Notes: generated from the letters alone by a model not told the origin. 64,000 nucleotides of DNA from an uncultured Verrucomicrobiota bacterium (GCA_903896505.1 CAITXU010000203.1:6659-70658); one strand, 5' to 3'. Counted from the stretch's first letter, positions 2,871-26,628 are shown. Translations and numbers: made by a program.

Positions 2871-3053
2871 CTTTCGGATGAAAAATCTGGTTCAGTTCCT
2901 CGTTGGTGCCTTTTCTTCCCAGGTCGGTTTCATGACTGCGTTGGCGAACGATGGGTGTCGCGAGTTTCTTTTTTTATTCGCCGGTGGTTTTTTTACGTCC
3001 GCAAGGTAGTCTTCCGGTACATCTCGACATCAAGTGCAGGCCTTGCTCCGCAA

Positions 3054-4679: not shown

Positions 4680-4720
4680 ACCTTTTTCTGATTGTCGCCA
4701 CAACGCCTGGAAGTAAGAAC

Positions 4721-5887
4721 ATGCGCCCCTCTTTTCACCCGGCGGCACGCCTGCTTTCGTCGATGGGGCTGGTTTTCGCCCTCTGTGCATGCCGCAAGAG
4801 CGTGCCGATAGCGCTGGAGCGTCCACCGGCAGAGGTATCCTTTGTGGCCGTGGCGTCGGAGGCGGTTGAGCGCACATCCGAATATCCGGGGCGGATTGCC
4901 CCCACCCGCGAGGCTCAGGTCCGCGCCCGCGCCTCTGGAATCCTCCAGAAACGCCTGTTCGAGGAAGGATCTAATGTCAAGGAGGGACAGGTCTTATTCG
5001 AGATCGATCCCGCCCCGTTGTGGTCCAGCCTGGAAGCCGCCAGAGCCGCCACCGCCAGAGCCGAAGCGGCGCTGCAGGTTTCGCGGGCCAACGTGGACCG
5101 ATACAAGGAATTGGTTCCGATCAACGCGATCAGCAAACAGGTCTATGATCAAGCGGTGGCGTTGCGTGGCCAGAACGAGGCTGAATTCCTCGCAGCGAAG
5201 GCGGTGGCCCAAACGGCGGAATTGAATCTCGGCTATACCCACGTCACAGCCCCGATATCCGGGAGGATTGGCAAGGCGATGGTCACCGAGGGGGCCTTGG
5301 TCAGCGCGACCGAGGCGACGCAATTGGCCCTCATCCGCCAGATGGACCCGGTGTATTTCGATTTCACCCAATCGAGTGCCGACTTGTTGCGATTGCGGAA
5401 AGCCATCGAAAACGGTTATCTCCAGACTGCGGATCGGAGCATCGCGGGCGTGACATTGGTCCTGGAGGACGGCACGCCCTATGCCCATCCTGGGCGGCTT
5501 CTGTTTACCGATATATCGGTCGATCCGAGCACCGGCATGATCACCCTCCGGTCTGAATTTCCGAATCCGGAAAACCTTCTTCTGCCCGGGGTATTTCTCC
5601 GTGCCCGCATTGTCGAGGGGGTGAGCACCAACGCTCTGACGATTCCCCAGCGTACCATCACCCGTGGCGCTGCGGGGGAGGCCTCTGTTCTGGTGGTCAG
5701 TGTGGACAACAAGATGGAGTCGCGCGTCATCGAAATTGATCGAGCGGTGGGGAGTAAAGTGGTTGTGGCCAAGGGGCTGAAAAGTGGTGAACGGGTGGTG
5801 GTGGAAGGCTCCCAAAAAGCGCTTCCGGGTTCGCTCGTGAGTCCGGTTCCCTTTGTTCAGCCGGCACGCGGCGTCAAGCCCAACTAG
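4721..5887 (+). CDS. RND efflux periplasmic adaptor (MFP, AcrA/MexA-like) lipoprotein
   Basis: 'VRARASGILQKRLFEEGSNVKEGQVLFEIDP', a coiled-coil segment, and 'YTHVTAPISGRIGKA' are typical of HlyD/AcrA-family adaptors. The ATG at 4721 gives a lipoprotein-like 'MGLVFALCAC'. The ORF itself extends upstream to 4439. The gene sits immediately upstream of the RND pump. Confidence 0.9.
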   Translation: MRPSFHPAARLLSSMGLVFALCACRKSVPIALERPPAEVSFVAVASEAVERTSEYPGRIAPTREAQVRARASGILQKRLFEEGSNVKEGQVLFEIDPAPLWSSLEAARAATARAEAALQVSRANVDRYKELVPINAISKQVYDQAVALRGQNEAEFLAAKAVAQTAELNLGYTHVTAPISGRIGKAMVTEGALVSATEATQLALIRQMDPVYFDFTQSSADLLRLRKAIENGYLQTADRSIAGVTLVLEDGTPYAHPGRLLFTDISVDPSTGMITLRSEFPNPENLLLPGVFLRARIVEGVSTNALTIPQRTITRGAAGEASVLVVSVDNKMESRVIEIDRAVGSKVVVAKGLKSGERVVVEGSQKALPGSLVSPVPFVQPARGVKPN

Positions 5888-5895
5888 GGCCCTCC

Positions 5896-8800
5896 ATGGC
5901 GCATTTTTTCATCCATCGGCCTGTTTTTGCCTGGGTCGTTTCGATCCTGATCATGGTGCTGGGCGGGCTGGCGATTGCCAGATTGCCTGTCGCCCAGTAC
6001 CCGAGCGTGGCACCGCCATCGGTCTCGGTCACCGCCAACTATGCCGGCGCATCGGCCGAGACGTTGCAGGAGGCCGTGACCTCGGTCATTGAGCAGCAAC
6101 TCAACGGAATCGACAATCTGCTTTACATGACTTCGGGCAGTGACGCGGCAGGCACCGCCACCGTCACCCTGTATTTCCTTCCAGGGACCAATCCCGACAC
6201 GGCACAGGTTCAAGTCCAGAACAAGGTGCAACTGGCCACGCCCAGTCTCCCGCTGACCGTCCAACAGCAAGGTGTGGTTGTGGCCAAGGCCACGCGGAAC
6301 TTCATGATGTTTTTCACGCTGTCGACCACGGACGACAGCCTCGATGAGGTCGCACTGGGCAATTACATCTCCGCCAGTGTCCTCGATCCGATTCGCCGCG
6401 TAAGTGGTGTGGGAGAGGCCAATCTGTTTGGTTCCCAATACGCCATGCGGGTATGGCTGGACCCTGCCAAAATGGACAGCTTTGGACTGACTGCGTCCGA
6501 AGTCGCAGCCGCGATTCAGGCACAAAACACCCAGGTTCCAGTGGGACAGATTGGGGCGGTGCCCTCCGTGCCTGGACAACAACTCAACGTGATTATGCAG
6601 GGCCGGACGACCCTTCGTACCGTGCCCGAGTTCGAGAAGATCATTCTCCGCGCCAATTCAGATGGCTCGCGGGTCTACTTGAAGGATGTCGGGCGGGTCG
6701 CTCTCGGTGCCGAAAACTACGGCACTCAGGCCCGGGTCAACGGGCATCTCTCCGCTGCCGTCGCCATCAAACTTTCGCCCACGGCCAATGCCTTGAACAC
6801 GGCCGCGGCTGTGCGCGCCAAGGTGGCCGATCTTTCCCGCTTTTTCCCGGCGGGAGTTCGGGTCGACTACCCGCTGGATACTTCCACCTTTGTCCGGATT
6901 TCCATTGAAGAAGTCCTCAAGACGCTTCTGGAAGCGATCGTCCTGGTGTTTCTGGTGATGTACTTGTTCCTGCAGAACCTCCGGGCAACGTTCATCCCCA
7001 CCATCGTCGTTCCGGTCGCGCTCCTCGGCACCTTCGCCTCCATGCTGGCGTTCGGTTTCACCATCAACGTACTGACGATGTTTGGCATGGTCCTGTCCAT
7101 TGGCATCCTCGTCGACGATGCCATTGTGGTCGTTGAAAACGTCGAGCGGATCATGGCCGATGAGGGCCTTTCGCCTATCGAGGCGACCCGCAAAGCGATG
7201 AGCCAGCTCACCGGCGCTCTGATCGGCATCACCCTGGTTCTGACAGCGGTGTTCATCCCCATGGCCTTCTTCAGCGGTTCGGTTGGAACCATCTACCGGC
7301 AATTTTCCCTGTCGCTGGTTTCTTCGATGGTCTTCTCGGTTTTCCTGGCGATGTCGCTGACCCCGGCCCTGTGCGCCACCCTGCTGAAGCCAATACCCAA
7401 AGGACGCAAGCACGAGAAACGGGGCTTCTTCGGTTGGTTCAACCGCACCTTTTCCTCGGCGACGAACCGCTACCAATCCTCGGTGGAACGGATATTGCTC
7501 CACAAGAGGGCGTCGATGGCTGTGTTTCTCGGCATTGTTTGTTTGGTCGGAGTCCTCTACGCCCGGATGCCGTCCTCGTTCCTCCCGGCTGAGGACCAGG
7601 GCTATTTTATCACCAACATCCAGTTGCCGGTCGGGGCGACCCAGGAAAGAACCCAGGAGGTTCTCCGACAGGTTGAGAGCTATTTCCTCAAGCAGTCCGA
7701 AATTGAGAGCTTCATCACGGTGGCCGGCTTCAGCTTTAACGGGCGGGGGCAGAATTCCGCGCTTTCTTTCGGACGACTGAAGGACTGGAGCCTGCGGAAA
7801 GGTCCGGAGCACACCGTCCAGTCGGTGATCGCACGCGCCGCCGGGACCTTCGCGTCCATCAAGGATGCGATCATTTTCCCGCTGAATCCTCCAGCCATTG
7901 CCGAACTTGGCAATTCCACCGGATTCGATTTCCAACTTCAGGACCTTGGGGGCCTCGGTCATGCCGCGTTGGTTGCTGCGCGAAATCAACTTCTTGCCAT
8001 GGCCGCCACTAATCCGGTGGTGGTTGGCGTCCGCGTTCAGGGACTTGACGACGCCGCCCAATTGAAGGTGGAGGTGGACGAAGAAAAGGCGACCACCCTG
8101 GGTGTTTCCCTGACCGACATCAATACCACCCTGCAAACCGGCTTCGGTTCGAGTTATATCAACAACTTCATCAACGGGAATCGGGTCCAGCGTGTGATTG
8201 TTCAGCTGGACGCGCCATTCCGCATGTCACCGGAAGATGTCGGCAGGCTCTATGTGAAGAATCACGCAGGGTCGATGGTCCCCCTTTCCGCCTTCACCAC
8301 CGTCAAGTGGATATTCGGTTCGCCGCAGTTGCAGAACTACAACGGTTTTCCGTCCTACGAACTGGTGGGAGCCGCCGCCCCGGGAAAGAGCACGGGTGAG
8401 GCCATGCAGGCGATGGAGGAAATGGCCCGGCAGCTTCCGCGTGGCATTGGATATGAATGGACCGGACAATCCTATGAAGAACGACTGTCGGGTTCGCAGG
8501 CCCCCACGCTGTACGCCCTGTCGCTGTTGGTGGTGTTTCTTTGCCTTGCGGCACTCTACGAAAGCTGGCCGATTCCCTTATCGGTGATCCTGGTCGTCCC
8601 GCTGGGAGTCCTCGGAGCACTGGCCGCCGCCGCTCTTCGCGGCCTGCCCAACGATGTCTATTTCAAGGTGGGCCTTTTGACCACCGTCGGTCTGGCGACG
8701 AAGAACGCCATTTTGATCATTGAATATGCCAAGGACCTCCAGGCCGCTGGTAAATCTGCCGTGGAGGCAACCATCGAGGCGGTCCATCTCCGGCTTCGTC

Positions 8801-9033
8801 CGGTGCTGATGACCTCCTTTGCCTTCATTCTTGGGGTGATGCCGTTGGTCGTCAGCGTCGGCGCGGGTTCTGCCAGCCGCAACGCCATCGGTACCGGTGT
8901 GGCCGGCGGGATGTTTGCCGCCACCGCCATAGGAATATTCTTAATTCCCGTATTCTACGTCGTGGTCCGAAGTGTCTTTAAACCGAAGTCACACGTCGGA
9001 ATATCCGACGCCAAGGCGGGACAGGTCCCATGA
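5896..9033 (+). CDS. RND multidrug efflux permease (HAE1, AcrB/MexB-like)
   Basis: 1045 aa. N-terminus 'MAHFFIHRPVFAWVVSILIMVLGGLAI' and 'GILVDDAIVVVENVER' are classic AcrB-family motifs, and the length and 12-TM layout are consistent. Confidence 0.97.
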   Translation: MAHFFIHRPVFAWVVSILIMVLGGLAIARLPVAQYPSVAPPSVSVTANYAGASAETLQEAVTSVIEQQLNGIDNLLYMTSGSDAAGTATVTLYFLPGTNPDTAQVQVQNKVQLATPSLPLTVQQQGVVVAKATRNFMMFFTLSTTDDSLDEVALGNYISASVLDPIRRVSGVGEANLFGSQYAMRVWLDPAKMDSFGLTASEVAAAIQAQNTQVPVGQIGAVPSVPGQQLNVIMQGRTTLRTVPEFEKIILRANSDGSRVYLKDVGRVALGAENYGTQARVNGHLSAAVAIKLSPTANALNTAAAVRAKVADLSRFFPAGVRVDYPLDTSTFVRISIEEVLKTLLEAIVLVFLVMYLFLQNLRATFIPTIVVPVALLGTFASMLAFGFTINVLTMFGMVLSIGILVDDAIVVVENVERIMADEGLSPIEATRKAMSQLTGALIGITLVLTAVFIPMAFFSGSVGTIYRQFSLSLVSSMVFSVFLAMSLTPALCATLLKPIPKGRKHEKRGFFGWFNRTFSSATNRYQSSVERILLHKRASMAVFLGIVCLVGVLYARMPSSFLPAEDQGYFITNIQLPVGATQERTQEVLRQVESYFLKQSEIESFITVAGFSFNGRGQNSALSFGRLKDWSLRKGPEHTVQSVIARAAGTFASIKDAIIFPLNPPAIAELGNSTGFDFQLQDLGGLGHAALVAARNQLLAMAATNPVVVGVRVQGLDDAAQLKVEVDEEKATTLGVSLTDINTTLQTGFGSSYINNFINGNRVQRVIVQLDAPFRMSPEDVGRLYVKNHAGSMVPLSAFTTVKWIFGSPQLQNYNGFPSYELVGAAAPGKSTGEAMQAMEEMARQLPRGIGYEWTGQSYEERLSGSQAPTLYALSLLVVFLCLAALYESWPIPLSVILVVPLGVLGALAAAALRGLPNDVYFKVGLLTTVGLATKNAILIIEYAKDLQAAGKSAVEATIEAVHLRLRPVLMTSFAFILGVMPLVVSVGAGSASRNAIGTGVAGGMFAATAIGIFLIPVFYVVVRSVFKPKSHVGISDAKAGQVP

Positions 9034-10430
9034 GCAGGATTTCGATTTTCATCGCATGCCTCCTTGCTCTGGTGGTCGGATGTTCATTTGCGCCGAAGTA
9101 TGAGAAGCCCGTTGCACCGGTCGCTGCCGCCTGGCCCGGACGCGCCGCCTCCAGCGGTGCCATCCCCGGCGATCCGTCGGAAATCGATTGGCACGATTTC
9201 TTTGATGATCCCCGCCTGCGTGCCCTGATTGGACTTGCCCTGACCAACGACCGCGAACTCAGGATTTCCGCTCTGCGGGTGGAGCAGGCCCGGGCCCGAT
9301 ATCGAATTCAACGGGCGGACCTCTTTCCCACAATCGACGGCAGCGCGAGTGGCAGTCGGCAAAAGTTCTCCGGCGCGATTTCTGCCTTCGATGGCGGCAA
9401 CGTCGTCACCATTTACGACATCCATTTGAGCGCGTCGTACGAACTGGATCTTTTTGGTCGGGTGAGAAGCCTCAAGACCGGGGCTCTGGAGAAGTATCTG
9501 GCGACAGAAGAGGCAAGTCGAAGCATCGAGATCGCTCTTGTATCCGAGGTCGCCTCTCAATACCTGACCCTGCAACAATACCGGGAAGCCAAGGCCATCG
9601 GCCAACAGACGCTGGATACCGTTGAGGCGTCGTACAACCTGAACAAGCACAGTTACGAGGCCGGGGTTGCTTCCGAACTCGAGTTGCAGGCGTCGTTGGC
9701 GCAGGTGCAGGCGGCGCGCGTAAGTATTGCCAACTACGCCCAACTGCTGGCCCAATCTGAAAACACTTTTGTGGAATTGGTCGGCGGTCCGCTCCCCGAA
9801 GACCTCCCGTCCGGGAAATCATTCCAACAGCAGCATCTATTGGCCTCCCTTCCCCCCGGGGTCCCCTCGGAGGTGTTGTTGCGCCGACCCGACATTCGGG
9901 CAGCTGAACACACTCTGTTGGCCGCCAACGCCGATATCGGTGCAGCAAGGGCTGCCCTCTATCCTCGTATCGTTCTTACCGGGGCTGTCGGTACCGCCAG
10001 TGCCTCCCTTTCAGACCTGTTCAGCGGCCCTTCGGCGACCTGGAGTTATTCCCCTCAAATCATCGTCCCGATTTTTCGCGGCGATGCCAGCCGAGCAGCT
10101 ATTGAGGTCTCCAAAATCGGAAAACAGATTGAGATCGCTAATTATGAAAAGGCCATCCAGGCCGCCTTTCGTGAGGTGGCCAACGCATTGGCCGTCCGTT
10201 CGATCCTGGATGAAAAGCTCACGGCCCAGGAGTTGTTGCTGGATGCCCAGCAAAAGCGGTTTGACCTCGCCAATGCCCGGTACCGGCAGGGAGTGGACAG
10301 CTACCTCGACGTGCTCCTCGCGCAACAAGACCTCTATATCGCCCGCCAGACGCTGCTGCAGTTCCAAGGGGCGCGCCTGCTCAACGCCGTCGCGCTGTAT
10401 CGCTCACTCGGCGGCGGATGGAAGAGGTGA
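9030..10430 (+). CDS. Efflux outer-membrane factor lipoprotein (NodT/OprM family)
   Basis: ATGA overlap with the RND stop. Lipobox 'LALVVGCSF'. 'WWDFFDDPRL'-type motif ('DWHDFFDDPRLRALI') and C-terminal 'ALYRSLGGGW' are typical of OMF proteins. Confidence 0.92.
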   Translation: MSRISIFIACLLALVVGCSFAPKYEKPVAPVAAAWPGRAASSGAIPGDPSEIDWHDFFDDPRLRALIGLALTNDRELRISALRVEQARARYRIQRADLFPTIDGSASGSRQKFSGAISAFDGGNVVTIYDIHLSASYELDLFGRVRSLKTGALEKYLATEEASRSIEIALVSEVASQYLTLQQYREAKAIGQQTLDTVEASYNLNKHSYEAGVASELELQASLAQVQAARVSIANYAQLLAQSENTFVELVGGPLPEDLPSGKSFQQQHLLASLPPGVPSEVLLRRPDIRAAEHTLLAANADIGAARAALYPRIVLTGAVGTASASLSDLFSGPSATWSYSPQIIVPIFRGDASRAAIEVSKIGKQIEIANYEKAIQAAFREVANALAVRSILDEKLTAQELLLDAQQKRFDLANARYRQGVDSYLDVLLAQQDLYIARQTLLQFQGARLLNAVALYRSLGGGWKR

Positions 10431-14517: not shown

Positions 14518-15351
14518 TCAGAAAAACGATATATCGGTGCCGTACCCGGCCACCCAGCCCACTTGGGTGCTGGTAGGGTGGGTGTTGGGTATGTCGAATT
14601 GCTGCCTCCGCTTCCATGTGACACGACCGTCTCCGAACAATTGGTTTAGCCCGGGAAACGTGGTCAAATCCGCATGTCCAAGTTCGGAGGGGGTGTGGTT
14701 GAAATAGTATTGGTCATCACCACCCCAATGAAACAGGGTGTCGGACATCAGGAGACGGTCCGATAGCAACTCCCGCTGGGTCAATTCTACCGGGCGATTC
14801 ACCATCGTCGGATCAAAAAGATCGGCGCGTCCGTAATAGCTATAACCAATCGACACAAATCCCCAGGTGGCAGCCTGGTCTCGGATGGCGCTGATGGTGC
14901 GCGGTGGAGCGCTTGGACACCAAAAAATTCCCGAGACCGCGAGGGAATCGAAATTGCCGGGCTTGGCCGATACACCGGCCGTATAGGGAGCCAGCAGCTG
15001 AAAGCATATCTGGTCCGGCAGGTCCGGTCGAACGTTGCTGAACACATTGACAACCGAGGGTTGCCGGTAGATGCCGTCTGATGAGACGGTTTGCAGGACA
15101 ACTCCGTTAAAATCGTTTGCGTAGAGTGCGGTGCCCACGCCGAATTGATGAAGGTTGGAGGAGCACGCGGTTCGTCTTCCGCGCTCCCTGGCTTTGGCCA
15201 TTGCAGGTAGCAGCATCGACGCCAGCAACGCGATGATCGCCACGACCACCAGAAGCTCGATGAGTGTGAATCCCGCCGAATCCCGGTATGTGGCTTGAGA
15301 ACCATGAACGGAGGTTCCCCGCCGGTGGAGTCCAGCACATGGAAGGTTCAT
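14518..15351 (-). CDS. Prepilin-type N-terminal cleavage/methylation domain protein (pseudopilin-like, DUF1559-like C-terminus)
   Basis: '[41 protein letters not shown]' is the type IV pilin/pseudopilin N-terminal signature. The C-terminal 'NQLFGDGRV' is as in PVC DUF1559-type proteins. ATG at 15351; the ORF extends to 15399. Confidence 0.88.
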
Positions 15352-15602
15352 ATCTGATTCGTTTCTCCGATGATTCAGCTGCCCGGTCAGTTCATCCAAA
15401 TAAGAGCTGAATCCTTTGGTTTGGCAAATACAGAATCAGCTCCATTGGGGCCTTTCAAAGGTGGGTTTGAAGCCAGCCCATTCTGGAACTCATGGGCCAT
15501 GCACGGCTCGGCAGGAGACCCCGACCATTGGAAACGGTGAAATAGGAGAAGGAACTTTTTGGGCAGTTCGGCGGCCATGCGACGTAGCACAGGCTTTCCA
15601 TC

Positions 15603-15991
15603 CTTCTAAATAACAGCTTTTGACCTCAACGGTTGATTCGTCTGCAACCTAATGAATCACAGTCACATCGGTAGGGCGAGGCTCCTGTCGAGCCGCGGCG
15701 GTCCGTTCCACGTCCGCATCGCAAGTTATACCCGGCCTGACCCCGGAGCGCCACGGGTGGGATGCTGCCGTACCGCAGGTTTCCAAACCTGCCGGGCCGA
15801 CGGGTTGACTCGGGGTCTTGGGACGGGGTCCCGCCCTGCCGACAAGAATGTCTGCGCTAAGGGTGAGAACACGCGGCCTTACGGATTTGCAGAGTGGCAG
15901 CGGCGTCCCGGCGATGGGTGCCCATGCGCGGAATAGGCATGATTCGGCCCACCCTGGGCTTTGCCGGAGCACCCATAAGGATGTCTTTGGA
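15603..15991 (-). repeat. Dispersed non-coding repeat, copy B (inverted relative to copy A at 61-398)
   Basis: See copy A. Copy B carries extra sequence in the less conserved half (~15840-15980). The conserved ends diverge right after 'ttatttRgaag' in both copies. ORFs 15649-15972(-) and 15652-15936(+) are translations of the repeat. Confidence 0.75.
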
Positions 15992-16065
15992 TGAAGTCAA
16001 ATTGGTCAGCTGGTGCCGATGGAATACGCTTGCAAAAAATCGGCGGATTGAGGACTGTCTACAAT

Positions 16066-19000
16066 ATGCTGGGCTCGGATTTGTGCGGTTTCTGGAGTTC
16101 GAACTGCGGACGCATCCTAAAGCGAGAATTGTTCGGAGCGGATGCTCTCAAGGGGATGGTTTTGCTGGCACTAATTATTTGGGCGGGAGTGGGTAAAACC
16201 TTGGCGGAAGGCTTTCGGATCACGGACGTCACGCGCATCGATGGTCGGGTCATCATCCACCATGAGTCCTCCTCCGAATACTATCATATCCTTGAGCGGA
16301 TGGATTTGCGGGCGGGAGTGGCCACTCCGATTGAACTGGAACCAGGCACACCCCTAACAGGTAGCCTTGGAGATCCAAACCCACCGTCCGCAGCTGGATA
16401 CTACCGGGTGCTGCGTGTCCCCAACGACAATCCTGGCGATATCGACCACGATGGGATTGATGACCTGTATGAGCGGAATCATCCTCCGCTGGATGCCTTC
16501 AATCCCAAGGATGCTGTGCAATTATCACCGATCACGGGACGGAAATACATCGATGATTATGAGCTCGATGGCTCCAATGTTGCGCTCTACCCCTACCTCG
16601 TTGGGCGGGGTATGCACGATGTGACCGGCCCCGCTGCCGATGGAGGGATGATGGGCTATGCTGAATCAAAACAAAAATCGGCGGGTCTCCACGATAGACA
16701 ATGGGCTCGTGCGTTCATCGTGGCCGGTCGCCAGCCCGGCGACAAGCGGGTCGCCTTTGTCGTCGTGGACACGGGGCAGCTTTTTCATTCCATCACACAG
16801 GGGGTTTTGGACCGAATTCAAGCCGACGACGAGCTCAAGGATTACTATTCCGCCGAGAACATCGTCCTGAGCGCAACCCATACTCATGGTGGGGCGGGTG
16901 GGCATTCCCATCATGTGCTGTACAACATTTCCATTGGTGGCTTCGCCTGGCAGACCTACGATGCCATCGTCCACGGTATTTACATGTCCATCAAAAAGGC
17001 GCACCGCGACCTCGCGCCAGGACGGATCGCGCTGAACGAGGGACATCTGGACAACGCCAACGAAAATCGGCAGGCCAAAGGCTTTCTTCAGAATATTGAG
17101 GTGACTCACCCCGACCTCGGTAACCCGTTCGGCAACGACAACCGGGACACCGAAATGCTCTGTTTGCGCTTTGAACACGTCAATCACCAGGAGATCGGGA
17201 TGTTGAATTGGTTTCCGGTTCATGGCGTTTCCTTTTCCAAGGACAACCATCTGTTGACCGGGGACAACAAGGGGCTTGCGGCCTATCTCTTTGAGCGGCA
17301 GATGGGAACCTACTACCCGGGCCACGGCAGCGAGACAAAGTCGTCCGGCTTTGTGGCGGGTTTCGCCAATTCAAACCCCGGGGATTTGACGGCAAATCGG
17401 AGGACCCTGGAGCCCGGTTGGCCTGCAAATGGCAAAGATGACGAGAGGAGGGCGACTCAGATCGGCACCCGCCAGTACGAAAAGTCCATGTCGCTCTACA
17501 AGGGAACGGAGGGGATTCCGGAACGGGTGTTCGGTTCCGTTGACTTTCGGCATGCCTACATCTCTTTTGCCGATTTGAAAGTCAATCCACCCAAGCTTTA
17601 CCCGTACAATGTCCCCGGGGTGGGGTTTGCCGGATCATCGTCAAAACCTCCCTGGCAAACCTACATCGGTGCCCTGGGTATCGATTTCGCCAAAGGGACT
17701 CTGGATGGTGAGGGAGCCTCGCAATTCTTTGTGGATGCCTTCCGATTGGTGACCGGGATTGTCACCGATCCTGCCACGGCTGAATTCTCCTACTATCATT
17801 ATCCGAAGGATATCGCGCTTACCACCGGAACCACGGCGATTGAAGGGATGACCTGGACTCCGCAGGTTCTGCCCGTCTCCATTCTTCGAATTGGAAATCT
17901 CGCCATCCTTGCGGTTCCGGGTGAATTCACCAGCATGGCTGGCTCCAGGCTTCGGAAGACGGTGGAGTCCATTTTAGGGCCGGACACGCATACGGTCATT
18001 GCAGGGCTCGCCAACGATTATTCGGGATACATCACCACCTACGAGGAATACTTCTATCAAAGTCCGGGTGAGACAGGGCTACTGGAGCAGGGCTACGAGG
18101 CCGGGTCCACCCAGTTTGGTGCCTTCACGCTGGCAGGCTACCAGACGAAGTTTACAGAATTAGCTCGGGCAATGGCTGCAGGTGATAAGGTGCGCACTCT
18201 TCCCATGCCCCGGACAGATCCTCCCGGTTTGTTTGTTTTGAAGGCTGCGGATCCCCTTCTGGATCTTCCGCCGTTGCCCCAGGCGCGTCCGGCAGAGTAC
18301 AAGGGGAAGGCGGGGTGTCCGGACGGCCAGTTCTGGGACATTTCCACCGGTTCGTGCTGGAGTTGCCCGGAGGGGTACAACCGAACAATCTTTGCCATCG
18401 ACGGCGCTACGGCCTGCGAAAAACCGGCCCAGTCGGTCTTTTCCTCCGCCACCGAGCATGGGCGGGCGGGATGTGGACCGGGCCAGTTTTTTGACATTTT
18501 TACCGGAGCGTGTTGGAGCTGTCCCGAAGGTTACAACCGAACTATTTTCCCTGTGGACGGGGGGGCGGCCTGCGAATTGCCGGCGCAGACGGTGAATGCC
18601 AGCGCCACCAAGCACGGTCAGGCAGGATGTGGTCCAGGTCAGTTCTTCGATCTTTTGACCGGGGCGTGCTGGAGTTGTCCGGACGGATATAACCGCACCA
18701 TCTTTCCCGTGGATGGGGCGGCAGCGTGTGAGAAACCGGCGCAGACGGTGAATGCTCGTGCCACCGAGCACGGGCAGGCGGGATGCGGGCCGGGCCAGTT
18801 CTTCGACATTTTCACCGGGGCGTGCTGGAGTTGTCCCGATGGGTATAACCGCACCATTTTTCCGGTGACTGGTGGGGCTGCGTGCGAAAAGCCCGCCTAC
18901 TCAGATTACGCCGCCGCTCTAAGCACCCGTGGAAGCGGCTTTTTCGGGACCGATTGCCCTGCGGGATACGTTTTTGATTTTATTCTCGGACGTTGCTACC

Positions 19001-20103
19001 GCTGTCCCGACGGTTTCGCCAAACTAATCTTCCGGTCATGGAATGACGGTGCCGCTTGTGAGCATGTTAATCCGGCGGTGGATACGACGGCCACACGCCA
19101 TGACGGGCTTTGTCCCAGCGGTCAATTCCTGGACATCGGTACCGGCTACTGCTGGAGCTGTCCTGACGGCTTCAACCGGACGATTTTCCCGATTGGTGGC
19201 GACGCGGCCTGCCAAAAGTCCATTCCCGCCATCAATTCCGGAGCCTCCCGCCATGATGGTCTTTGCCCCAATGGACAATTTTTGGATATTGGAACTGGCT
19301 ATTGCTGGAGTTGCCCCGGTGGTTATAGCCGCACGGTGTTTCCGATAGGCGGAGGCGCCGCTTGTCAGACGGTGATCCCGGCAGTCGACACCAGTGCCAC
19401 GCGGCACGACGGTCTGTGTCCCAGTGGACAGTTCTGGGATATCGGGACCGGCTACTGCTGGAGTTGTCCGCCTGGGTACAAGCGAACCATCTTCGTCATC
19501 GGCGGATCCACCGCTTGTGAACAGGTGATTCCAGCGGTTTCCACGACGGCCACCAAGTTCGGGAAATATTTTTGTGCCGATCGCGGTCCAGACTGGTTTC
19601 TGGATATCGGCAGAAACGAGTGCTGGTCGTGCAACGGATGGACCCGAAACCTGAATCCAGTGGACAGCCCGGAAGCCTGCACAGGGCCGCAGGCCGCCTT
19701 TGGGGACCAGGTCATCGATCCGCTGTGGCTCCGACCCGATAAGGAGCGGGTGTATTCGCGAGGTCAGCGCACCACGGTGGCGATCAGTTTTTGGGGAGGT
19801 CATCCCAAGAACGTTTTTGGAACGGTCAAAAACCGCCAGCTCGACGCCCTGCCAACGTTCCTGGAGGTGCAGCTCCTCACCGGATCAGAGTGGAAGACGG
19901 TCAGGACGGACGCGGACTGGGATACGACCTTTGAGTGGACCCGGGTGGGCATTGCCGCTTCCTCTCTCAAGGTGACATGGGCCTTGGGCTCGGACGCTGC
20001 CTTGGGCATCTACCGGATCGTCCACCGCGGGTTCTCTCTCGATACCTTTGGAAATATAAGTCCTTATCAAGGCAATTCACCGACCTTCCAAGTGGTGCCC
20101 TAG
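16066..20103 (+). CDS. Exported neutral/alkaline ceramidase with N-terminal YYRV/TSP3-like module and a 9-repeat Cys-rich insertion
   Basis: Catalytic-domain motifs 'RAFIVAG...RVAFVVVDTG', 'VLSATHTHGGAGGH', 'NWFPVHGVS' and 'ANDYSGYITT'. C-terminal domain 'FGDQVIDP...ISFWGGHPKN...GIYRIVHRG'. The start is uncertain: the ORF opens at 15991 inside the repeat, and ATG 16066 or 16156 precedes the hydrophobic 'MVLLALIIWAGVG'. Confidence 0.88.
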   Translation: MLGSDLCGFWSSNCGRILKRELFGADALKGMVLLALIIWAGVGKTLAEGFRITDVTRIDGRVIIHHESSSEYYHILERMDLRAGVATPIELEPGTPLTGSLGDPNPPSAAGYYRVLRVPNDNPGDIDHDGIDDLYERNHPPLDAFNPKDAVQLSPITGRKYIDDYELDGSNVALYPYLVGRGMHDVTGPAADGGMMGYAESKQKSAGLHDRQWARAFIVAGRQPGDKRVAFVVVDTGQLFHSITQGVLDRIQADDELKDYYSAENIVLSATHTHGGAGGHSHHVLYNISIGGFAWQTYDAIVHGIYMSIKKAHRDLAPGRIALNEGHLDNANENRQAKGFLQNIEVTHPDLGNPFGNDNRDTEMLCLRFEHVNHQEIGMLNWFPVHGVSFSKDNHLLTGDNKGLAAYLFERQMGTYYPGHGSETKSSGFVAGFANSNPGDLTANRRTLEPGWPANGKDDERRATQIGTRQYEKSMSLYKGTEGIPERVFGSVDFRHAYISFADLKVNPPKLYPYNVPGVGFAGSSSKPPWQTYIGALGIDFAKGTLDGEGASQFFVDAFRLVTGIVTDPATAEFSYYHYPKDIALTTGTTAIEGMTWTPQVLPVSILRIGNLAILAVPGEFTSMAGSRLRKTVESILGPDTHTVIAGLANDYSGYITTYEEYFYQSPGETGLLEQGYEAGSTQFGAFTLAGYQTKFTELARAMAAGDKVRTLPMPRTDPPGLFVLKAADPLLDLPPLPQARPAEYKGKAGCPDGQFWDISTGSCWSCPEGYNRTIFAIDGATACEKPAQSVFSSATEHGRAGCGPGQFFDIFTGACWSCPEGYNRTIFPVDGGAACELPAQTVNASATKHGQAGCGPGQFFDLLTGACWSCPDGYNRTIFPVDGAAACEKPAQTVNARATEHGQAGCGPGQFFDIFTGACWSCPDGYNRTIFPVTGGAACEKPAYSDYAAALSTRGSGFFGTDCPAGYVFDFILGRCYRCPDGFAKLIFRSWNDGAACEHVNPAVDTTATRHDGLCPSGQFLDIGTGYCWSCPDGFNRTIFPIGGDAACQKSIPAINSGASRHDGLCPNGQFLDIGTGYCWSCPGGYSRTVFPIGGGAACQTVIPAVDTSATRHDGLCPSGQFWDIGTGYCWSCPPGYKRTIFVIGGSTACEQVIPAVSTTATKFGKYFCADRGPDWFLDIGRNECWSCNGWTRNLNPVDSPEACTGPQAAFGDQVIDPLWLRPDKERVYSRGQRTTVAISFWGGHPKNVFGTVKNRQLDALPTFLEVQLLTGSEWKTVRTDADWDTTFEWTRVGIAASSLKVTWALGSDAALGIYRIVHRGFSLDTFGNISPYQGNSPTFQVVP
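18316..19680 (+). repeat. Nine in-frame tandem repeats of 156 nt (52 aa), 4 Cys each
   Basis: The unit 'C(G/P)xGQF(F/W/L)DxxTGxCWSCPxGYNRTIFPxxGxxACExPAxxVxxxATxHG' runs from the first Cys codon at 18316 to the last at 19678-19680. The period was checked from the Cys codons at 18316, 18472 and 18628. Repeats 5 and 9 are degenerate. Confidence 0.9.
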
Positions 20104-20165: not shown

Positions 20166-21872
20166 ATGAAAAAGACTCTGTTTCGTCCCTTCCAATGGCC
20201 CGGGTGGTTGGACCGCTTCGTTTCGGTGTTGGCCTTGGTGCTGACGTTTTCCAACTCTGCAGCAGTGGCTCGCGCCGCCGATTCAACCGAGTCAGCATCC
20301 AATCCCACCGAGGTCACGGCGGTTATTTTTTCGGACTTTTTCTCCCCGGCATGCGCGGAGGTGAATGGGCTCTTGGATGAACTGGCCAAATCGAGGCACG
20401 TCACCATTCAGAAGCTCTTCAAGCATGCCCCGTCGGATACGTCCGCCTTGCCCGCTCATGAGGCCGCGCTGGCCGCCGGTGCTCAGGGTAAGTTTCAGGA
20501 GATGCACGATCTCCTGTTCAAACAATCGAGACCGGCCGGTAGCGCTTTGCTTCGTCTGGCCAAAACACTCGATCTCGACCTGAAGCAGTTCGAAACCGCC
20601 CTGGACGAACGTGAGTTCAGACACATTGTGATTCGCGATATTTCAGAGGCACGCGGATTCGGTGTTCACGTGACGCCCACCGTGTTTTTGAACGGAACCA
20701 GGGTTCAGGGATTGGATGAGCTCAAATCCCTGGTCCGAACCCCGGCACCTCCTGCCGCTCCTGCCTGGGAAGACACGCCCGTCGAAAAGCTCGCGTTAAA
20801 CTTTGAGGGTTCCCCGACAAGCGGGCCCAGCAACGCTCCCATCACCATCGTGGAGTTCACCGATTTCCGTTGCGGCTTCTGCCGGATTAATTCCCGGGTC
20901 ATCACGGAGCTGGTGGCGGCATTTCCCGGTCGGATTTATCGAGTGTTTAAAAACTACCCGATTGAGCCGGAGGGTGCCGGCATGCGGTCCCACGTCGCCG
21001 CACTGGGTGCGCTGGACCAGGGGAAGTTCTGGGAGATGCACCAATCGATCATGGCACGGCCGCTGGAGCCTGGGGACGATTTGTTTGATCGAGCCAAGTC
21101 CATGGGAATTGATCTCACCCTCTTTCAAAAAAGCCTCAATGACCCGGCAAAGCGGGCAATCCTGCGGCGCGACGTCGCCGAGGGGGAACAACTTGGAATC
21201 CGGGCCACGCCAACCACCTTCCTGAACGGAAAGCGATTGGTGGGCAGGCAATCCCTGGAGACTCTGAAGCAACATGTCGATGAACTCCTTGGCTCTCAGG
21301 CCGTCTTCACGGGGCAGGGGGATGAATCGCCGACCAGTCTTGGCGATTTGCAGGCACCCGAGCATATCGAGGCCTTCATTGACCTTGGGCATCCAGACAG
21401 CGCGGCGTGGGTTGCTCTTCTTAGAGACCTCGTCAGGGAACGACCGAGTGTCAGGGTTCAGTTCCGGCATTTTCCCAAGTCGGGTGATCTGGCCAGTCTT
21501 CAAATTCACGAGGCCGCGATGGCAGCGTCGGAGCAGAATCAGTTCTGGGAGATGTGTGATCAGCTTCTCGTCCTCAAAGCTCCAACGGAACCTGGAACGT
21601 TGAACGGCGTCGCCGGGAACCTGGGCCTGGATACCGTTCGGTTCGCGTCCGCCTTGAGCGGGCATCGATACAGGGGACGAATCGAAGCTGATGTTGCTGA
21701 AGGCCGACAAAGAGGCCTCCAAGGGCCGTCCTTTTTCCTGAATGGCGAGCAGTTCAAGGAACTACCAACCCTTTCAAGCATTGCCTATCGACTGGATCAG
21801 AGGGCTTGTTGTGGCAGGCCAACTATTCCCGACTCGCCACCACCCGGTGTGAAGGCTGCTGTTGTTAGATAA
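20166..21872 (+). CDS. Exported protein with three tandem DsbA-like thioredoxin-fold domains (only the middle one keeps CxxC)
   Basis: The ATG at 20166 gives a signal peptide 'MKKTLFRPFQWPGWLDRFVSVLALVLTFSNSAAVARA'. D1: 'FSDFFSPACAE ... VHVTPTVFLNG'. D2: 'FTDFRCGFCR ... IRATPTTFLNG'. D3: 'FIDLGHPDSAAW ... LQGPSFFLNG'. Each domain has a '(K/N)(F/Q)(Q/W)EMH/C' helix. Confidence 0.85.
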   Translation: MKKTLFRPFQWPGWLDRFVSVLALVLTFSNSAAVARAADSTESASNPTEVTAVIFSDFFSPACAEVNGLLDELAKSRHVTIQKLFKHAPSDTSALPAHEAALAAGAQGKFQEMHDLLFKQSRPAGSALLRLAKTLDLDLKQFETALDEREFRHIVIRDISEARGFGVHVTPTVFLNGTRVQGLDELKSLVRTPAPPAAPAWEDTPVEKLALNFEGSPTSGPSNAPITIVEFTDFRCGFCRINSRVITELVAAFPGRIYRVFKNYPIEPEGAGMRSHVAALGALDQGKFWEMHQSIMARPLEPGDDLFDRAKSMGIDLTLFQKSLNDPAKRAILRRDVAEGEQLGIRATPTTFLNGKRLVGRQSLETLKQHVDELLGSQAVFTGQGDESPTSLGDLQAPEHIEAFIDLGHPDSAAWVALLRDLVRERPSVRVQFRHFPKSGDLASLQIHEAAMAASEQNQFWEMCDQLLVLKAPTEPGTLNGVAGNLGLDTVRFASALSGHRYRGRIEADVAEGRQRGLQGPSFFLNGEQFKELPTLSSIAYRLDQRACCGRPTIPDSPPPGVKAAVVR

Positions 21873-23128: not shown

Positions 23129-26100
23129 TCACGGCCAGATCCGCACTCGGTAGAAGCGTTTGTCCTGTGTCGGGAGTGGGTCTGTAAACTGTACTTGACC
23201 GTTCACAACCACGTTCGTGCTGATCGGATCCCAATGCCTTAGGTCGGACGAGGCGTCGATCACGAAGCTCGTTCCATTCTGGCCGGGGAATTGGAACTGC
23301 ATGGTGCCATTGCCGACAGTGAAGGTGGGCACCCCTAAGGCCAGTTGAATGACGGAGATATTGACTGCCGCCGAGGTCGTCGTAGCGCCGAGATTGTCCG
23401 TGGCGCGCGCACTCAGGATGTGCGGGCCAAAATCTGGATTTCTCCAGAGGAGACCGAAGGGTGACACCGTGGTCTCACCGAGCTTCACGTCCCCGTCGAA
23501 GAACTCGACCTTGGCCACGGACCCGTCGGTATCGGAAGCAATGGCCTGAAGGCCAACGGTTCCCGGTGAAACGTAGGAGTCGCCCTTGGCGGGAGCGGTG
23601 AGAGCAATCTGGGGTGGCGCATTGAGCGGAGCTACGGTGCCAATCGCCCGGACTTTATCAATGGTCGCGACGTTGACCGCAGAGTTGTTGTGAGCGGTGA
23701 GCGCGATGCCGACATAGACTTTGGTTGGCAGTGTCGGTGAAAAGGTGATGGAATCCACCTTGGACCAGGTCGAACCATTGGGGGAGACGTACCCGGTGAC
23801 AGTGTTGCCTGCGCGAACCAATCGGACCCAATACGGTGCTGCTGCTCCAGGCCCGCCGGTGTGATCGCTTCCACCTCCGGTCGTGGCGCGGCGTTGGAAG
23901 GCTGTGCCATTTCCAGGCGTTACGGCCATGATCGCATGGCGCGAGTCGGCTTGAAGCGTTTCACGGACCATGACGCCAGCCTTGGCCCATCCGTCGGTGT
24001 TATCGAGGGTATTGACCCGGGCAATCAGTTCGCCGTCGCCGGGCAGTGGTTGATAGACGTAATGAAAGGCGTCGGCATTGCCCCAGATATCGTCGCCGCT
24101 CGCACTGACGGTCAGCGTGCCGCCGACGTAACTCGCGTCACCTGGCGTGCCGACGGCACCAATATCCGTGTGCAACCAGGGTGACGGAATCGAGTCGGGC
24201 ACCGACGGCAGAGAGGAGATCCATTCGGTCAACACCGCAACGGCGGCGGTGTCCACGACGTTCCTGGCCAACGGCGGCATCCGGATCGCAGGGTCCACAC
24301 TGTTAGCGCGCTGAAGCAGGATGGACTTCTCGGGATGCCCAGGGACGGCGACCTTCGCGCCAGCGATGCCGAGATTCTGCGAGACCGTGCCATTCAGGAT
24401 GCCTGCGCTCGCCAACGGTGTGTCGAAGCGCGCGTCCCAGAACGCCCGGACGCCGCCGGGCCGGTGGCAGTGGGCGCAGTTGGCGTCGAGATACGAGCGG
24501 GCCCGCAGTTCCAGGTCTGCGGCAGTGTTCGCGACGGAAACGAGTTGGTTATAGGATGCGATGTCGGTTTCGTTCAGCGCGGGAGAAAGGAGGCCGATGT
24601 GATTCCACGCACGAAGCTGGTTGTCCGTGACTCCGTTGGCGTAGTGGAAGTTGCCATTGGACTGGCGGGTCTTCACGCCAAGGACGCCCTTGGCAGCTGT
24701 CGTATGACACTGGAGACATTCGCTGCGACTCGGGTAATGCCACGTCTGGACTCGGGAACCACCAGCCGTCTGGATGACAATATTCTCGTCGAGGTTGTTG
24801 ACGAGAAGGTCGGCGTCGCTGTTGTCGGGCCGCCACTTGTAGGTCGCGCCGAAGACGGTCCCATTCGTGTCGCGGACGAGCAGACGGGTTTCGAGCCGTC
24901 GTCGCCCGCCGATGCTGCTCGTCTCGTTGGTCACCAATTCAAAGTGCTTCACCCAGAAACTTCCGGCGGGAAAGGTCCACTCCCCGGTTGGCGCGAAACC
25001 GATGGTGCCGTTGGTCGGAATGCTCATCCAGCGGCTCTTCACCGCGGCGTCGGACCAAAGCGGGGAATTGACTGTGTAAGGGATCAGCGCGTCTGAGGGC
25101 GTGAGCGCAGCAGTGTCGGTAAACGCGCCGGTCTGCGAGAGCAGCGGCGGAAAATCGCGAGCGGGTTCTGGCGGTGGACCCGAGCGTTTGAGCTTGAAGA
25201 TCTGTCCGCCGAGATTGCCCATCTGGCAGAGGTAAAGTTCGCCGGACGCGTCGGTACCAAAGGAGGACAAGCCCGTGTAGTCGGCACCGGAATTGAAACC
25301 GGGTCCTTTGGGAAGCACACAGAGGAGTGTCTTGCGGGCGGGCACGCTCGTTTCGTCCAGGGCCCAGATTTTGCCCTGCACGTTGTCGCCGAAGATGTAG
25401 CGACCGCCGAGATCGGTCGCGAACTCGCTGCCGCGATACACATAACCGCCGATGACGGCCTGGCCTTCGTCGTGGCCATAGTCCAGGATGGGCCGCTTGT
25501 TCACGCCGATGTAGGGCTGGGAAAGATCCCCGTTCAGGCCCTCGATCCGGCTCCACTGGAAATTCAATCCCCTCGTTTCGGTCGGCTCGATCACGTCGAT
25601 CTCCTCGCGGGAACCCGCTCCGACGTCGCCAATGAAGATGCGTCCGCTTGGCGGATCAATCGTCATCCGGTGCGGACTCCGCAGACCCAGACCGTAAAAC
25701 TCTTCCAGGACGTCGGCTTGTCCTACGAACGGGTTGTCATTCGGGATGTAATAGTTTGCGGTCGAGCCATTGGCTGGCTGCTTCTTGATCGGATGGCTGA
25801 TATCGCCGCCGCGCTGGTCGACGTCGATACGAAAGACTCCGGAGAGCAGGTTCTGGTTGATGATCTGGGTCGGACCGGATTCGTCGTCACCGTCGGTCCA
25901 GTAGAGAAAGCCATTGCCCGGATGGAAGAACAGGCCGCCGCCATTGTGCCAGACGCTGCTGGCAGACTGGTCGACCAGGACCAATTCGGAGTTCGGCGAG
26001 GCGATGCCATTGGCATCCAGGGTGAAGCGGGATAATCGGTCGTGATACGCGTCGGTCTTAAACGTCGGCGGACGAACCTGCGGACTGCCAACGACCGTTC

Positions 26101-26524
26101 CCGGGATTACCCATGTGTAGTAGATGAAAACGTAGCGGTTGGTGGCAAAGCCTGGATGAAATGCCAGGCCGAGCAACCCGGAATCATCCCATCCCTGGCA
26201 ACGGTTGCGGATGTCGAGCATCAGCGTCTTTGCGGTGGTGTTTGACACATTGGCAAACGACCAGACGCGCCCCTCGCGTTCCCAGACCACCAGATTGCTG
26301 GTTCCAGGCACGAATGTCAGACCCAGGGCGTTGGTAAACCGAAGGTTGCTGAACGCCGGCACGGTCGACCAGTTTCCCGAAATGGCCGGCGCCGCCGAAG
26401 GGAGTTTGCCGTTCAGGAAGGGTCCGACTGCCGGTCGCGCGGTCAGACCGTACGGGGCGGCCATGATTCGCCCTGAAATCAAAAGGCCAAGGGCCAGTGC
26501 AATCCATGTCCTGAGGTGCGTCAT
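23129..26524 (-). CDS. Exported multidomain protein: sugar-dehydrogenase-like propeller + di-CxxCH module + LamG/ConA-like + Ig-like + RFYR C-terminal domain
   Basis: Signal peptide from the ATG at 26524 ('MTHLRTWIALALGLLISGRIMAAP'); the ORF reaches a TTG at 26563. Propeller: 'GLLGLAFHPGF' and 'VWHNGGGLFFHPGNGFLYWTDGDD'. Two haem-c motifs, 'CLQCHT' and 'CAHCHRPGG', sit within an 'LSQTGAF...PLWSDAAVKSRW...LETRLLVR' block. A 'GDDIWGNADAFHYVYQPL...DGWAKAGVMVRE' ConA-like block follows. The protein ends 'DKRFYRVRIWP'. Confidence 0.85.
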   Translation of the reverse strand: MTHLRTWIALALGLLISGRIMAAPYGLTARPAVGPFLNGKLPSAAPAISGNWSTVPAFSNLRFTNALGLTFVPGTSNLVVWEREGRVWSFANVSNTTAKTLMLDIRNRCQGWDDSGLLGLAFHPGFATNRYVFIYYTWVIPGTVVGSPQVRPPTFKTDAYHDRLSRFTLDANGIASPNSELVLVDQSASSVWHNGGGLFFHPGNGFLYWTDGDDESGPTQIINQNLLSGVFRIDVDQRGGDISHPIKKQPANGSTANYYIPNDNPFVGQADVLEEFYGLGLRSPHRMTIDPPSGRIFIGDVGAGSREEIDVIEPTETRGLNFQWSRIEGLNGDLSQPYIGVNKRPILDYGHDEGQAVIGGYVYRGSEFATDLGGRYIFGDNVQGKIWALDETSVPARKTLLCVLPKGPGFNSGADYTGLSSFGTDASGELYLCQMGNLGGQIFKLKRSGPPPEPARDFPPLLSQTGAFTDTAALTPSDALIPYTVNSPLWSDAAVKSRWMSIPTNGTIGFAPTGEWTFPAGSFWVKHFELVTNETSSIGGRRRLETRLLVRDTNGTVFGATYKWRPDNSDADLLVNNLDENIVIQTAGGSRVQTWHYPSRSECLQCHTTAAKGVLGVKTRQSNGNFHYANGVTDNQLRAWNHIGLLSPALNETDIASYNQLVSVANTAADLELRARSYLDANCAHCHRPGGVRAFWDARFDTPLASAGILNGTVSQNLGIAGAKVAVPGHPEKSILLQRANSVDPAIRMPPLARNVVDTAAVAVLTEWISSLPSVPDSIPSPWLHTDIGAVGTPGDASYVGGTLTVSASGDDIWGNADAFHYVYQPLPGDGELIARVNTLDNTDGWAKAGVMVRETLQADSRHAIMAVTPGNGTAFQRRATTGGGSDHTGGPGAAAPYWVRLVRAGNTVTGYVSPNGSTWSKVDSITFSPTLPTKVYVGIALTAHNNSAVNVATIDKVRAIGTVAPLNAPPQIALTAPAKGDSYVSPGTVGLQAIASDTDGSVAKVEFFDGDVKLGETTVSPFGLLWRNPDFGPHILSARATDNLGATTTSAAVNISVIQLALGVPTFTVGNGTMQFQFPGQNGTSFVIDASSDLRHWDPISTNVVVNGQVQFTDPLPTQDKRFYRVRIWP

Positions 26525-26628
26525 AGGCTTATTGGGCGACGGAGGAAGCAGTTTCAATTCCAAGTTTGTGGCGTCGGTAACTTCAAAGTCAGCCGAAACC
26601 CCTCGTGGGGTTTCGAAGTGTCCGGTCT

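Follow-up and report, generated by a model that had tools for sequence, protein, structure and literature searches.

A verrucomicrobial neutral ceramidase with a nine-unit cysteine-rich array in the loop ahead of its C-terminal domain and a multi-domain DsbA-like gene as its neighbor

A neutral ceramidase is encoded at positions 15991-20103 (plus strand) of a 64,000-nt stretch of DNA from an uncultured Verrucomicrobiota bacterium (GCA_903896505.1, CAITXU010000203.1:6659-70658; hereafter the window, meaning this whole stretch). Relative to known neutral ceramidases, the window enzyme adds an array of about 470 aa with 36 cysteines, an N-terminal domain of about 127 aa, and a DsbA-like protein encoded by the neighboring gene. 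The reading that we prefer, with a probability of about 0.55, is that of a Sec-secreted ceramidase whose array, assisted in its folding by the DsbA-like protein, forms a two-limbed hairpin arm that serves in tethering or targeting and not in catalysis.

The open reading frame is intact throughout its 1370 codons, counted from the upstream-most ATG, although the true start codon is probably near aa 47-56. The catalytic domain (aa 202-745; 16594-18225, plus strand) was delimited by Pfam and by residue alignment to the Pseudomonas aeruginosa ceramidase (PaCDase, PDB entry 2zws), and is matched by Ceramidase_alk (PF04734) over aa 202-718 (E 2.6e-130, 435.9 bits against a gathering threshold of 32.1, profile positions 1-508 of 509). 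The C-terminal Ig-like ceramidase domain (aa 1237-1370; 19699-20100, plus strand), defined by Pfam, alignments and model superposition, is matched by Ceramidse_alk_C (PF17048) over aa 1250-1368 (E 1.1e-24, 87.5 bits against 30.5); this match starts only at profile position 55 of 169 and runs to the end, because the array insertion breaks the start of the model. A structure-sequence alignment to 2zws pairs aa 201-730 with residues 4-488 and aa 1254-1368 with residues 533-641, and human ASAH2 (4wgk) aligns to the window protein in the same way. The first-pass annotation, made from the sequence, had described a neutral ceramidase split between its catalytic and C-terminal domains, and both flanks are thus what it took them to be.

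The window enzyme shares these two domains, and the active site, with PaCDase (2zws/2zxc) and ASAH2. In the residue-by-residue alignment, H297/H299, H411, E645 and Y680 lie opposite 2zws H97/H99, H204, E411 and Y448, of which we take H97, H204, E411 and Y448 to be the zinc ligands, and H99 the catalytic histidine, of the PaCDase structure. Since all of these residues are conserved, the protein looks, as far as its sequence indicates, like a catalytically competent, Zn-dependent neutral ceramidase. Its score against the NCBIfam equivalog model ceramidase_neut (NF041649) is 342.4 bits, far under the cut-off of 1200, so it is a divergent homologue rather than an equivalog-level member or routine orthologue. 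Like PaCDase, it would be secreted. Its orthologues carry Sec signal peptides, with cleavage directly before a conserved FRIT motif in all members of the clade, so the mature window ceramidase should begin near aa 74, with the signal peptide predicted to end at KTLAEG/FRITDV (aa 73/74).

The insertion site was mapped by aligning the window protein with 47 ceramidases. The catalytic domain is followed by a conserved linker, PPGLFVLKAADPLLDLPPLP (aa 746-763; 18226-18279, plus strand; defined by the ceramidase alignment), which ends at the insertion point. The array is flanked by the near-invariant D758 and P761 on one side and by the invariant F1237-G1238, where the C-terminal domain starts, on the other; in canonical ceramidases of bacteria and fungi, the equivalent '..D..P.g.' and 'FGD' motifs have 0 residues between them, against about 470 in the window protein. 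The array is thus inserted in a loop, immediately beyond the linker and right where the C-terminal domain begins; this short loop connects the linker with strand 1 of the Ig-like domain. The first-pass placement of the insertion between the two ceramidase domains is supported by these alignments.

The array consists of nine units with periods of 51-57 aa, each having a conserved N-terminal 'SAT' strand and four cysteines per approximately 52 aa. The first cysteine of each unit is at aa 776, 828, 880, 932, 989, 1041, 1092, 1143 and 1195, and the 36 cysteines of the array, which presumably form 18 disulfides, compare with 3 in the remaining ~900 residues of the protein. These counts are as first annotated, and the interval given then, 18316-19680, extends from the first base of the Cys776 codon to the last base of the Cys1230 codon (i.e., the first and last cysteines of the array). 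Units 1-4 (aa 764-970; 18280-18900, plus strand) are of 'A-type' and constitute the proposed outgoing limb, based on cysteine spacing, unit identities, unit typing and AlphaFold2 (AF2) modeling. Unit 5 (aa 976-1028; 18916-19074, plus strand) is a divergent 'T-type' unit (GSGFFGTDC...CYRCP...K...W) according to identities and typing, and is the proposed hairpin apex. Units 6-9 (aa 1029-1235; 19075-19695, plus strand), assigned from cysteine spacing, identities and typing, comprise three 'B-type' units (6-8) and a divergent closing unit 9, and make up the proposed returning limb. Units 2-4 have 81-87% mutual protein identity and units 6-8 have 71-78%, while unit 1 is 61-65% identical to units 2-4, and for units 5 and 9 the identity to the remaining units is just 22-43%. 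The statement that adjacent units are nearly identical is thus an overstatement that applies only loosely.

The array is a genuine and ancient feature, maintained by purifying selection. Between close units, Nei-Gojobori proportions of synonymous differences (0.58-0.95) are saturated and those of nonsynonymous differences are low (0.07-0.18), which is the basis for inferring both age and purifying selection; the two DNA strings that were compared at first pass are present at 18511 and 18667, and differ at 8 of 33 nt with one residue changed. In addition, a 98%-identical protein of 1370 aa with the same nine units (P0121) is found on five other contigs. Saturated synonymous sites and independent contigs together rule out misassembly or recent duplication, as the first-pass annotation had argued. 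Tandem Repeats Finder does detect a DNA-level repeat (156-nt period, 77% matches), in units 1-4 only, which could speak for misassembly or for a functionless expansion of a decaying or selfish repeat; but we give practically no credence to either, because the protein is conserved between units whose synonymous sites are saturated, the reading frame is unbroken over 1370 codons, the same nine units recur on the P0121 contigs, and arrays occupy the same site in orthologues down to 38% identity.

These orthologues were collected by a full-length search, which gave 34 clusters of long ceramidases with 38-98% identity (P0121-P0154). All 34 have units at the identical site, as determined with a hidden Markov model of the unit and with phmmer for both ceramidase domains. 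The number of units per array is 1, 3, 5, 6, 7 (the most common), 9 or 11, and more distant ceramidases have none. In a survey of one genome per GTDB species, the array-bearing genes occur in metagenome-assembled genomes (MAGs) of Verrucomicrobiota (Limisphaerales, Verrucomicrobiales and Chthoniobacteraceae), with the single exception of a bin labeled Cyanophyceae, whereas Pseudomonas, Zooshikella, Kangiellaceae and Planctomycetes have ceramidases of the canonical kind. Variation in repeat number among PVC relatives, a matter raised at first pass, is thus seen as same-site arrays of 1-11 units in the Verrucomicrobiota MAGs. The Cyanophyceae-labeled MAG (locus L015, JBIKWS010000071.1) contains an array-bearing ceramidase together with its DsbA gene; it is probably a binning error rather than a lateral transfer, since all other genome matches are Verrucomicrobiota.

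In total, about 35 database clusters bear the insertion. All are uncharacterized ceramidases, and their database names are simply 'neutral ceramidase' or 'hypothetical protein'. A search of the full-text literature on verrucomicrobial ceramidases, ceramidase domain structure and bacterial Ephrin_rec_like domains found no paper on the insertion, the symmetric module or the DsbA pairing. The array-bearing ceramidase is therefore new to the literature but not to databases, and the enzyme family itself is known; the impression at first pass that no such ceramidase had been seen was right for papers and wrong for sequence collections.

The arrays are built symmetrically. When orthologue units are typed by their best match to the window's nine units, 18 arrays have a single type-5 unit with equal numbers of flanking units on its two sides (2+1+2, 3+1+3 or 4+1+4), and, in nearly every such array, units on the N side are similar to window units 1-4 and those on the C side to units 6-9. 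A second sub-clade of 12 arrays has a central block of 2, 3, 5 or 7 type-5 units, with two units per flank. The same pattern occurs outside of the ceramidases: in 238 non-ceramidase unit proteins, in which a regular expression was used to locate the signature of type 5 (G-x-G-x2-5-[TS]-x-C, ahead of the first cysteine), a T-type unit (T) lies at the exact center of an odd run of units (u) in 79 proteins (uTu in 66, uuTuu in 11 and uuuTuuu in 2), and is off-center in 2.

AF2 modeling of aa 171-1370 gave a mean predicted local distance difference test (pLDDT) value of 81.6 and a predicted template-modeling score (pTM) of 0.68. The model superposes on 2zws with a TM score of 0.87 and on 4wgk with a TM score of 0.84-0.85 (both target-normalized), and the alignments span approximately 1180 columns. 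Since the catalytic domain is just ~78% of the target, a TM score of 0.87 needs the C-terminal domain to be docked canonically, and the two-domain fold, with the C-terminal domain on the catalytic domain, is thus predicted to be retained. If the ceramidase domains pack canonically, then the start and the end of the array have to come together. This packing, along with the position of the array in a loop and its symmetric growth, suggests an array with adjoining ends, for which the simplest geometry would be an antiparallel two-limbed hairpin with the type-5 unit or units at the apex. The 'stalk or ligand-binding array' suggested at first pass is in this way refined to a closed, probably hairpin-shaped arm.

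The gene that follows the ceramidase encodes a secreted protein with three DsbA/Thioredoxin_4 domains (20166-21872, plus strand; identified by Pfam, a signal peptide and active-site motifs), and begins 62 bp after the ceramidase stop codon. Its product matches PF13462 (170 bits) and PF01323 (142 bits) in three stretches; the active-site motifs are SPAC in the first domain and CGFC in the middle one, and the third domain has no active-site cysteine. A DsbA-like gene is immediately downstream, on the same strand, at 15 of 16 distinct array-bearing loci (window included), often overlapping the ceramidase or separated from it by less than 50 bp, and in five loci there is a second DsbA-like gene directly upstream. 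All 13 ceramidase loci without units lack a DsbA-like neighbor, which rules out the idea that DsbA simply accompanies any ceramidase. At three related loci (L003, 2279-5734; L004, 2721-5288; L005, 1605-5861), the gene directly upstream of the ceramidase-DsbA pair encodes a large Ser/Thr protein kinase, which has WD40 or TPR repeats and is absent from the window.

The DsbA-like partners have one CxxC domain each, which is CGFC except in two loci (CGHC and CHFC), plus 0-3 further DsbA-fold domains that are mostly SxxC or cysteine-less, with a second CxxC in two loci. Ceramidases with 1 unit are paired with 1 DsbA domain, those with 5-7 units with 2, and those with 7-9 units with 3 or 3+1; this is a loose trend only, and strict scaling of domain number with unit number was rejected. 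Similar to multi-thioredoxin-fold PDI (protein disulfide isomerase)-like proteins, the partner combines one redox-active CxxC domain with redox-inactive domains of the same fold, a mix that resembles the a/b domain logic of PDI. It differs in that its domains are of DsbA/Thioredoxin_4 type, and in being bacterial, periplasmic (as predicted) and genetically tied to one client. We infer that the partner would be a dedicated PDI-like oxidase/isomerase, acting on a client with up to 22 disulfides.

The unit itself is a mobile module of bacterial proteins. With the array alone as query, 238 proteins were retrieved, and an 89-unit profile found 1001 representatives of 50%-identity clusters at E<=0.001, out of 1.84 billion, of which 334 were at E<=1e-30. 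The members of the family are proteins secreted by bacteria, in which arrays of 3-12 units are fused to lectin-type domains (discoidin, ricin, tectonin and hemopexin) and, in several cases, to lipid hydrolases, i.e., Lipase_3 (P0096), a Zn phospholipase C (P0112) and an alpha/beta-hydrolase (P0116). Proteins such as a discoidin domain-containing protein of Phaeodactylibacter xiamenensis (P0061) and a RICIN protein (P0106) belong to the same family as the ceramidase arrays (E 1e-31 to 1e-94), and the lectin and hydrolase proteins often have the same n-T-n symmetry. They differ from the ceramidases in that the array is appended at the N or C terminus, next to the lectin or hydrolase domain, whereas in the ceramidases it is nested in a loop of the enzyme. 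Many other unit proteins (P0011-P0120 and P0172-P0293) are approximately 525 aa in length, with three units (often uTu), a Cys-rich gap of about 165 aa and a fourth unit, for 32 cysteines; the gap matches no family, and these three-plus-one proteins appear to be an abundant uncharacterized family of their own.

The first-pass annotation likened the repeats to ephrin-receptor, GCC and furin-like modules, and this likeness stands in part. Ephrin_rec_like (PF07699) scores 12.3 bits on the window array (E 0.15), below its gathering threshold of 23.1, and in Pfam and NCBIfam searches of the array and of single units nothing reached threshold (Ephrin_rec_like, CBM_14 and NCD3G were all below their cut-offs); the GCC2_GCC3, furin-like and TNFR_c6 models had no match to the array at E<=10. 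On the other hand, 16 of 67 unit relatives scanned pass the whole-protein cut-off of PF07699 (P0002, 43.7 bits; P0008, 50.1 bits; and P0172, the best, 58.7 bits), solely by summed partial matches to the C-x2-C-P-x-G-Y core, which cover about 25 of the 48 profile positions with no single stretch being sufficient. Since only relatives pass, the link of the window array to PF07699 is transitive.

An AF2 model of units 2-4, based on a 48-sequence alignment, is all-beta with a pLDDT of 93.3 and a pTM of 0.60. Foldseek searches of the PDB and BFVD with this three-unit model returned nothing at E<=0.001; the best of the weak neighbors is TNFR2 (E 0.15, probability 0.12), and others are HVEM, the EGF repeats of NELL2, the Cys-rich domain of CaSR, Elapor1 and adenovirus fibre shafts. 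The EphA4 ectodomain is also among the neighbors (E 6.1, TM 0.15), although a three-unit query is a poor probe for one small module. The 89-sequence unit profile has no match at E<=10 among all PDB sequences. The units share with PF07699 and TNFR-type modules a build of small disulfide-rich beta-hairpins, a C-x2-C-P-x-G-[YF] core and an arrangement in tandem extracellular rods. In our view, the unit represents a bacterial branch, as yet without a name, within the broad ephrin-receptor-like/TNFR-like disulfide-rich class, and is not demonstrably a member of PF07699.

In the mechanism that we propose, the ceramidase would be exported through Sec, and the PDI-like DsbA protein encoded beside it would form or proof-read the disulfides of the array in the periplasm. 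The ceramidase core would fold normally, with the array jutting out as a rigid arm of small, disulfide-stapled beta-hairpin units. Units 1-4 would run outward, unit 5 would form the apex and units 6-9 would run back in antiparallel fashion, and, if TNFR-type modules are a guide, the arm might extend from the enzyme by a distance on the scale of 100 Å. Its role would then be to tether or target the enzyme to a surface, which could be the envelope of the cell itself or a target membrane or debris containing ceramide, with no involvement in catalysis. A targeting or tethering role is favored over a catalytic one because lectins and other lipid hydrolases carry the same module, and because orthologues differ freely in its length, but we hold this part of the proposal tentatively. 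More doubtful still is a broader picture, in which the arrays represent an undescribed class of module, a self-closing hairpin rod with its own PDI-like DsbA partner, and the arm targets the ceramidase to ceramide-bearing (eukaryotic or Bacteroidota) membranes. In that picture, the two ends of a self-closing rod meet, and so the rod can be spliced into surface loops of enzymes.

Several observations weigh against the hairpin arm and its assisted folding. One array (P0149) is asymmetric, the sole such case; an odd number of units is no strict rule, given five arrays with 6; and two others (P0133, with 3 units, and P0148, with 7) have no recognizable type-5 unit. Many non-ceramidase arrays likewise show no T-type unit. 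Unit types were assigned by best match or regular expression rather than by phylogeny, and the orthologues are not independent samples. In the full-length model, the pLDDT is only 50-65 for units 2-3 and 6-8, i.e., in the middle of each proposed limb, and the canonical packing of the core may simply reflect the training of the network on solved ceramidases. The contacts between the limbs of the proposed hairpin are hypothetical, the models having been judged by summary scores rather than by coordinates or predicted-error maps. Among the array-bearing loci, L018, which has a 1-unit array, has no DsbA neighbor. Finally, the present evidence would seem to bear on the shape of the arm, and not directly on what it binds.

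The nine units might instead form a linear stalk, an extended rod that parts the catalytic domain from the C-terminal Ig-like domain, with the latter serving as a separate anchoring or binding foot. Straight rods are common among TNFR-like modules, the weak Foldseek neighbors of the three-unit model include elongated structures (TNFR2, HVEM and the adenovirus fibre shafts), and the pTM of that model is just 0.60. We nevertheless regard a stalk as quite improbable, because the insertion is in a loop rather than between independently folding halves, with the linker and the FGD strand both conserved, and because the full-length model retains the canonical packing. A stalk also leaves the symmetric n-T-n build unexplained, and one-unit forms occupy the same site.

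A different alternative concerns the function of the arm more than its shape. The array could be a ligand-recognition module, binding a glycan, a lipid head-group or a protein and giving the enzyme substrate or target specificity, rather than a spacer. Such a role is compatible with a hairpin, and is a rival to the preferred reading only where the latter takes the arm to be passive. The fusions of the unit to lipid hydrolases, the weak matches to the CBM_14 chitin-binding motif and the strong purifying selection across the whole unit are all in its favor. However, the unit is mostly found beside bona fide lectin domains in other proteins, where a scaffold role fits better, the range of 1-11 units among orthologues is more typical of spacers, and the sequence allows no binding site to be inferred, so we consider recognition by the array itself to be unlikely.

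Neutral ceramidases are viewed as compact two-domain enzymes, and in this clade the inter-domain loop both tolerates and conserves a disulfide-rich appendage of 50-580 residues over deep divergence. The module family to which this appendage belongs is bacterial, numbers about 1000 clusters, and has neither a Pfam or NCBIfam model of its own nor a solved structure; the symmetric build of the appendage predicts a hairpin rod, which is a testable geometry. The near-obligate pairing of the ceramidase with a multi-domain DsbA would be a rare example, outside of model organisms, of a client and oxidoreductase pair that is genetically defined. In ecological terms, the system suggests that freshwater and soil Verrucomicrobiota scavenge sphingolipids outside the cell.

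The N-terminal extension of the mature protein (aa 74-200, ~127 aa; 16210-16590, plus strand) is present in most members of the clade, as judged by phmmer and the clade consensus. It contains an acidic motif, D-x-D-x-D-G-x-D-D-x-Y-E, which looks like a calcium-binding site, while canonical ceramidases do not have the extension. The extension matched nothing in Pfam at E<=10, and nothing in NCBIfam at threshold.

Upstream of the ceramidase, on the opposite strand, 14518-15399 encodes a protein with a prepilin-type N-methylation motif and DUF1559, which is typical of Planctomycetota and Verrucomicrobiota and is in line with the taxonomic assignment of the window. An ordinary-looking and complete RND efflux operon lies at 4439-10430 (plus strand), and consists of an HlyD-type membrane-fusion protein, an AcrB-type pump (1233 bits) and an outer-membrane factor. 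Two glucose/sorbosone dehydrogenase (GSDH) proteins are encoded as well, one at 2955-4679 (plus strand) and the other at 23129-26563 (minus strand), the latter being 1144 aa in length and also having DUF1349 and Big_7 Ig domains.

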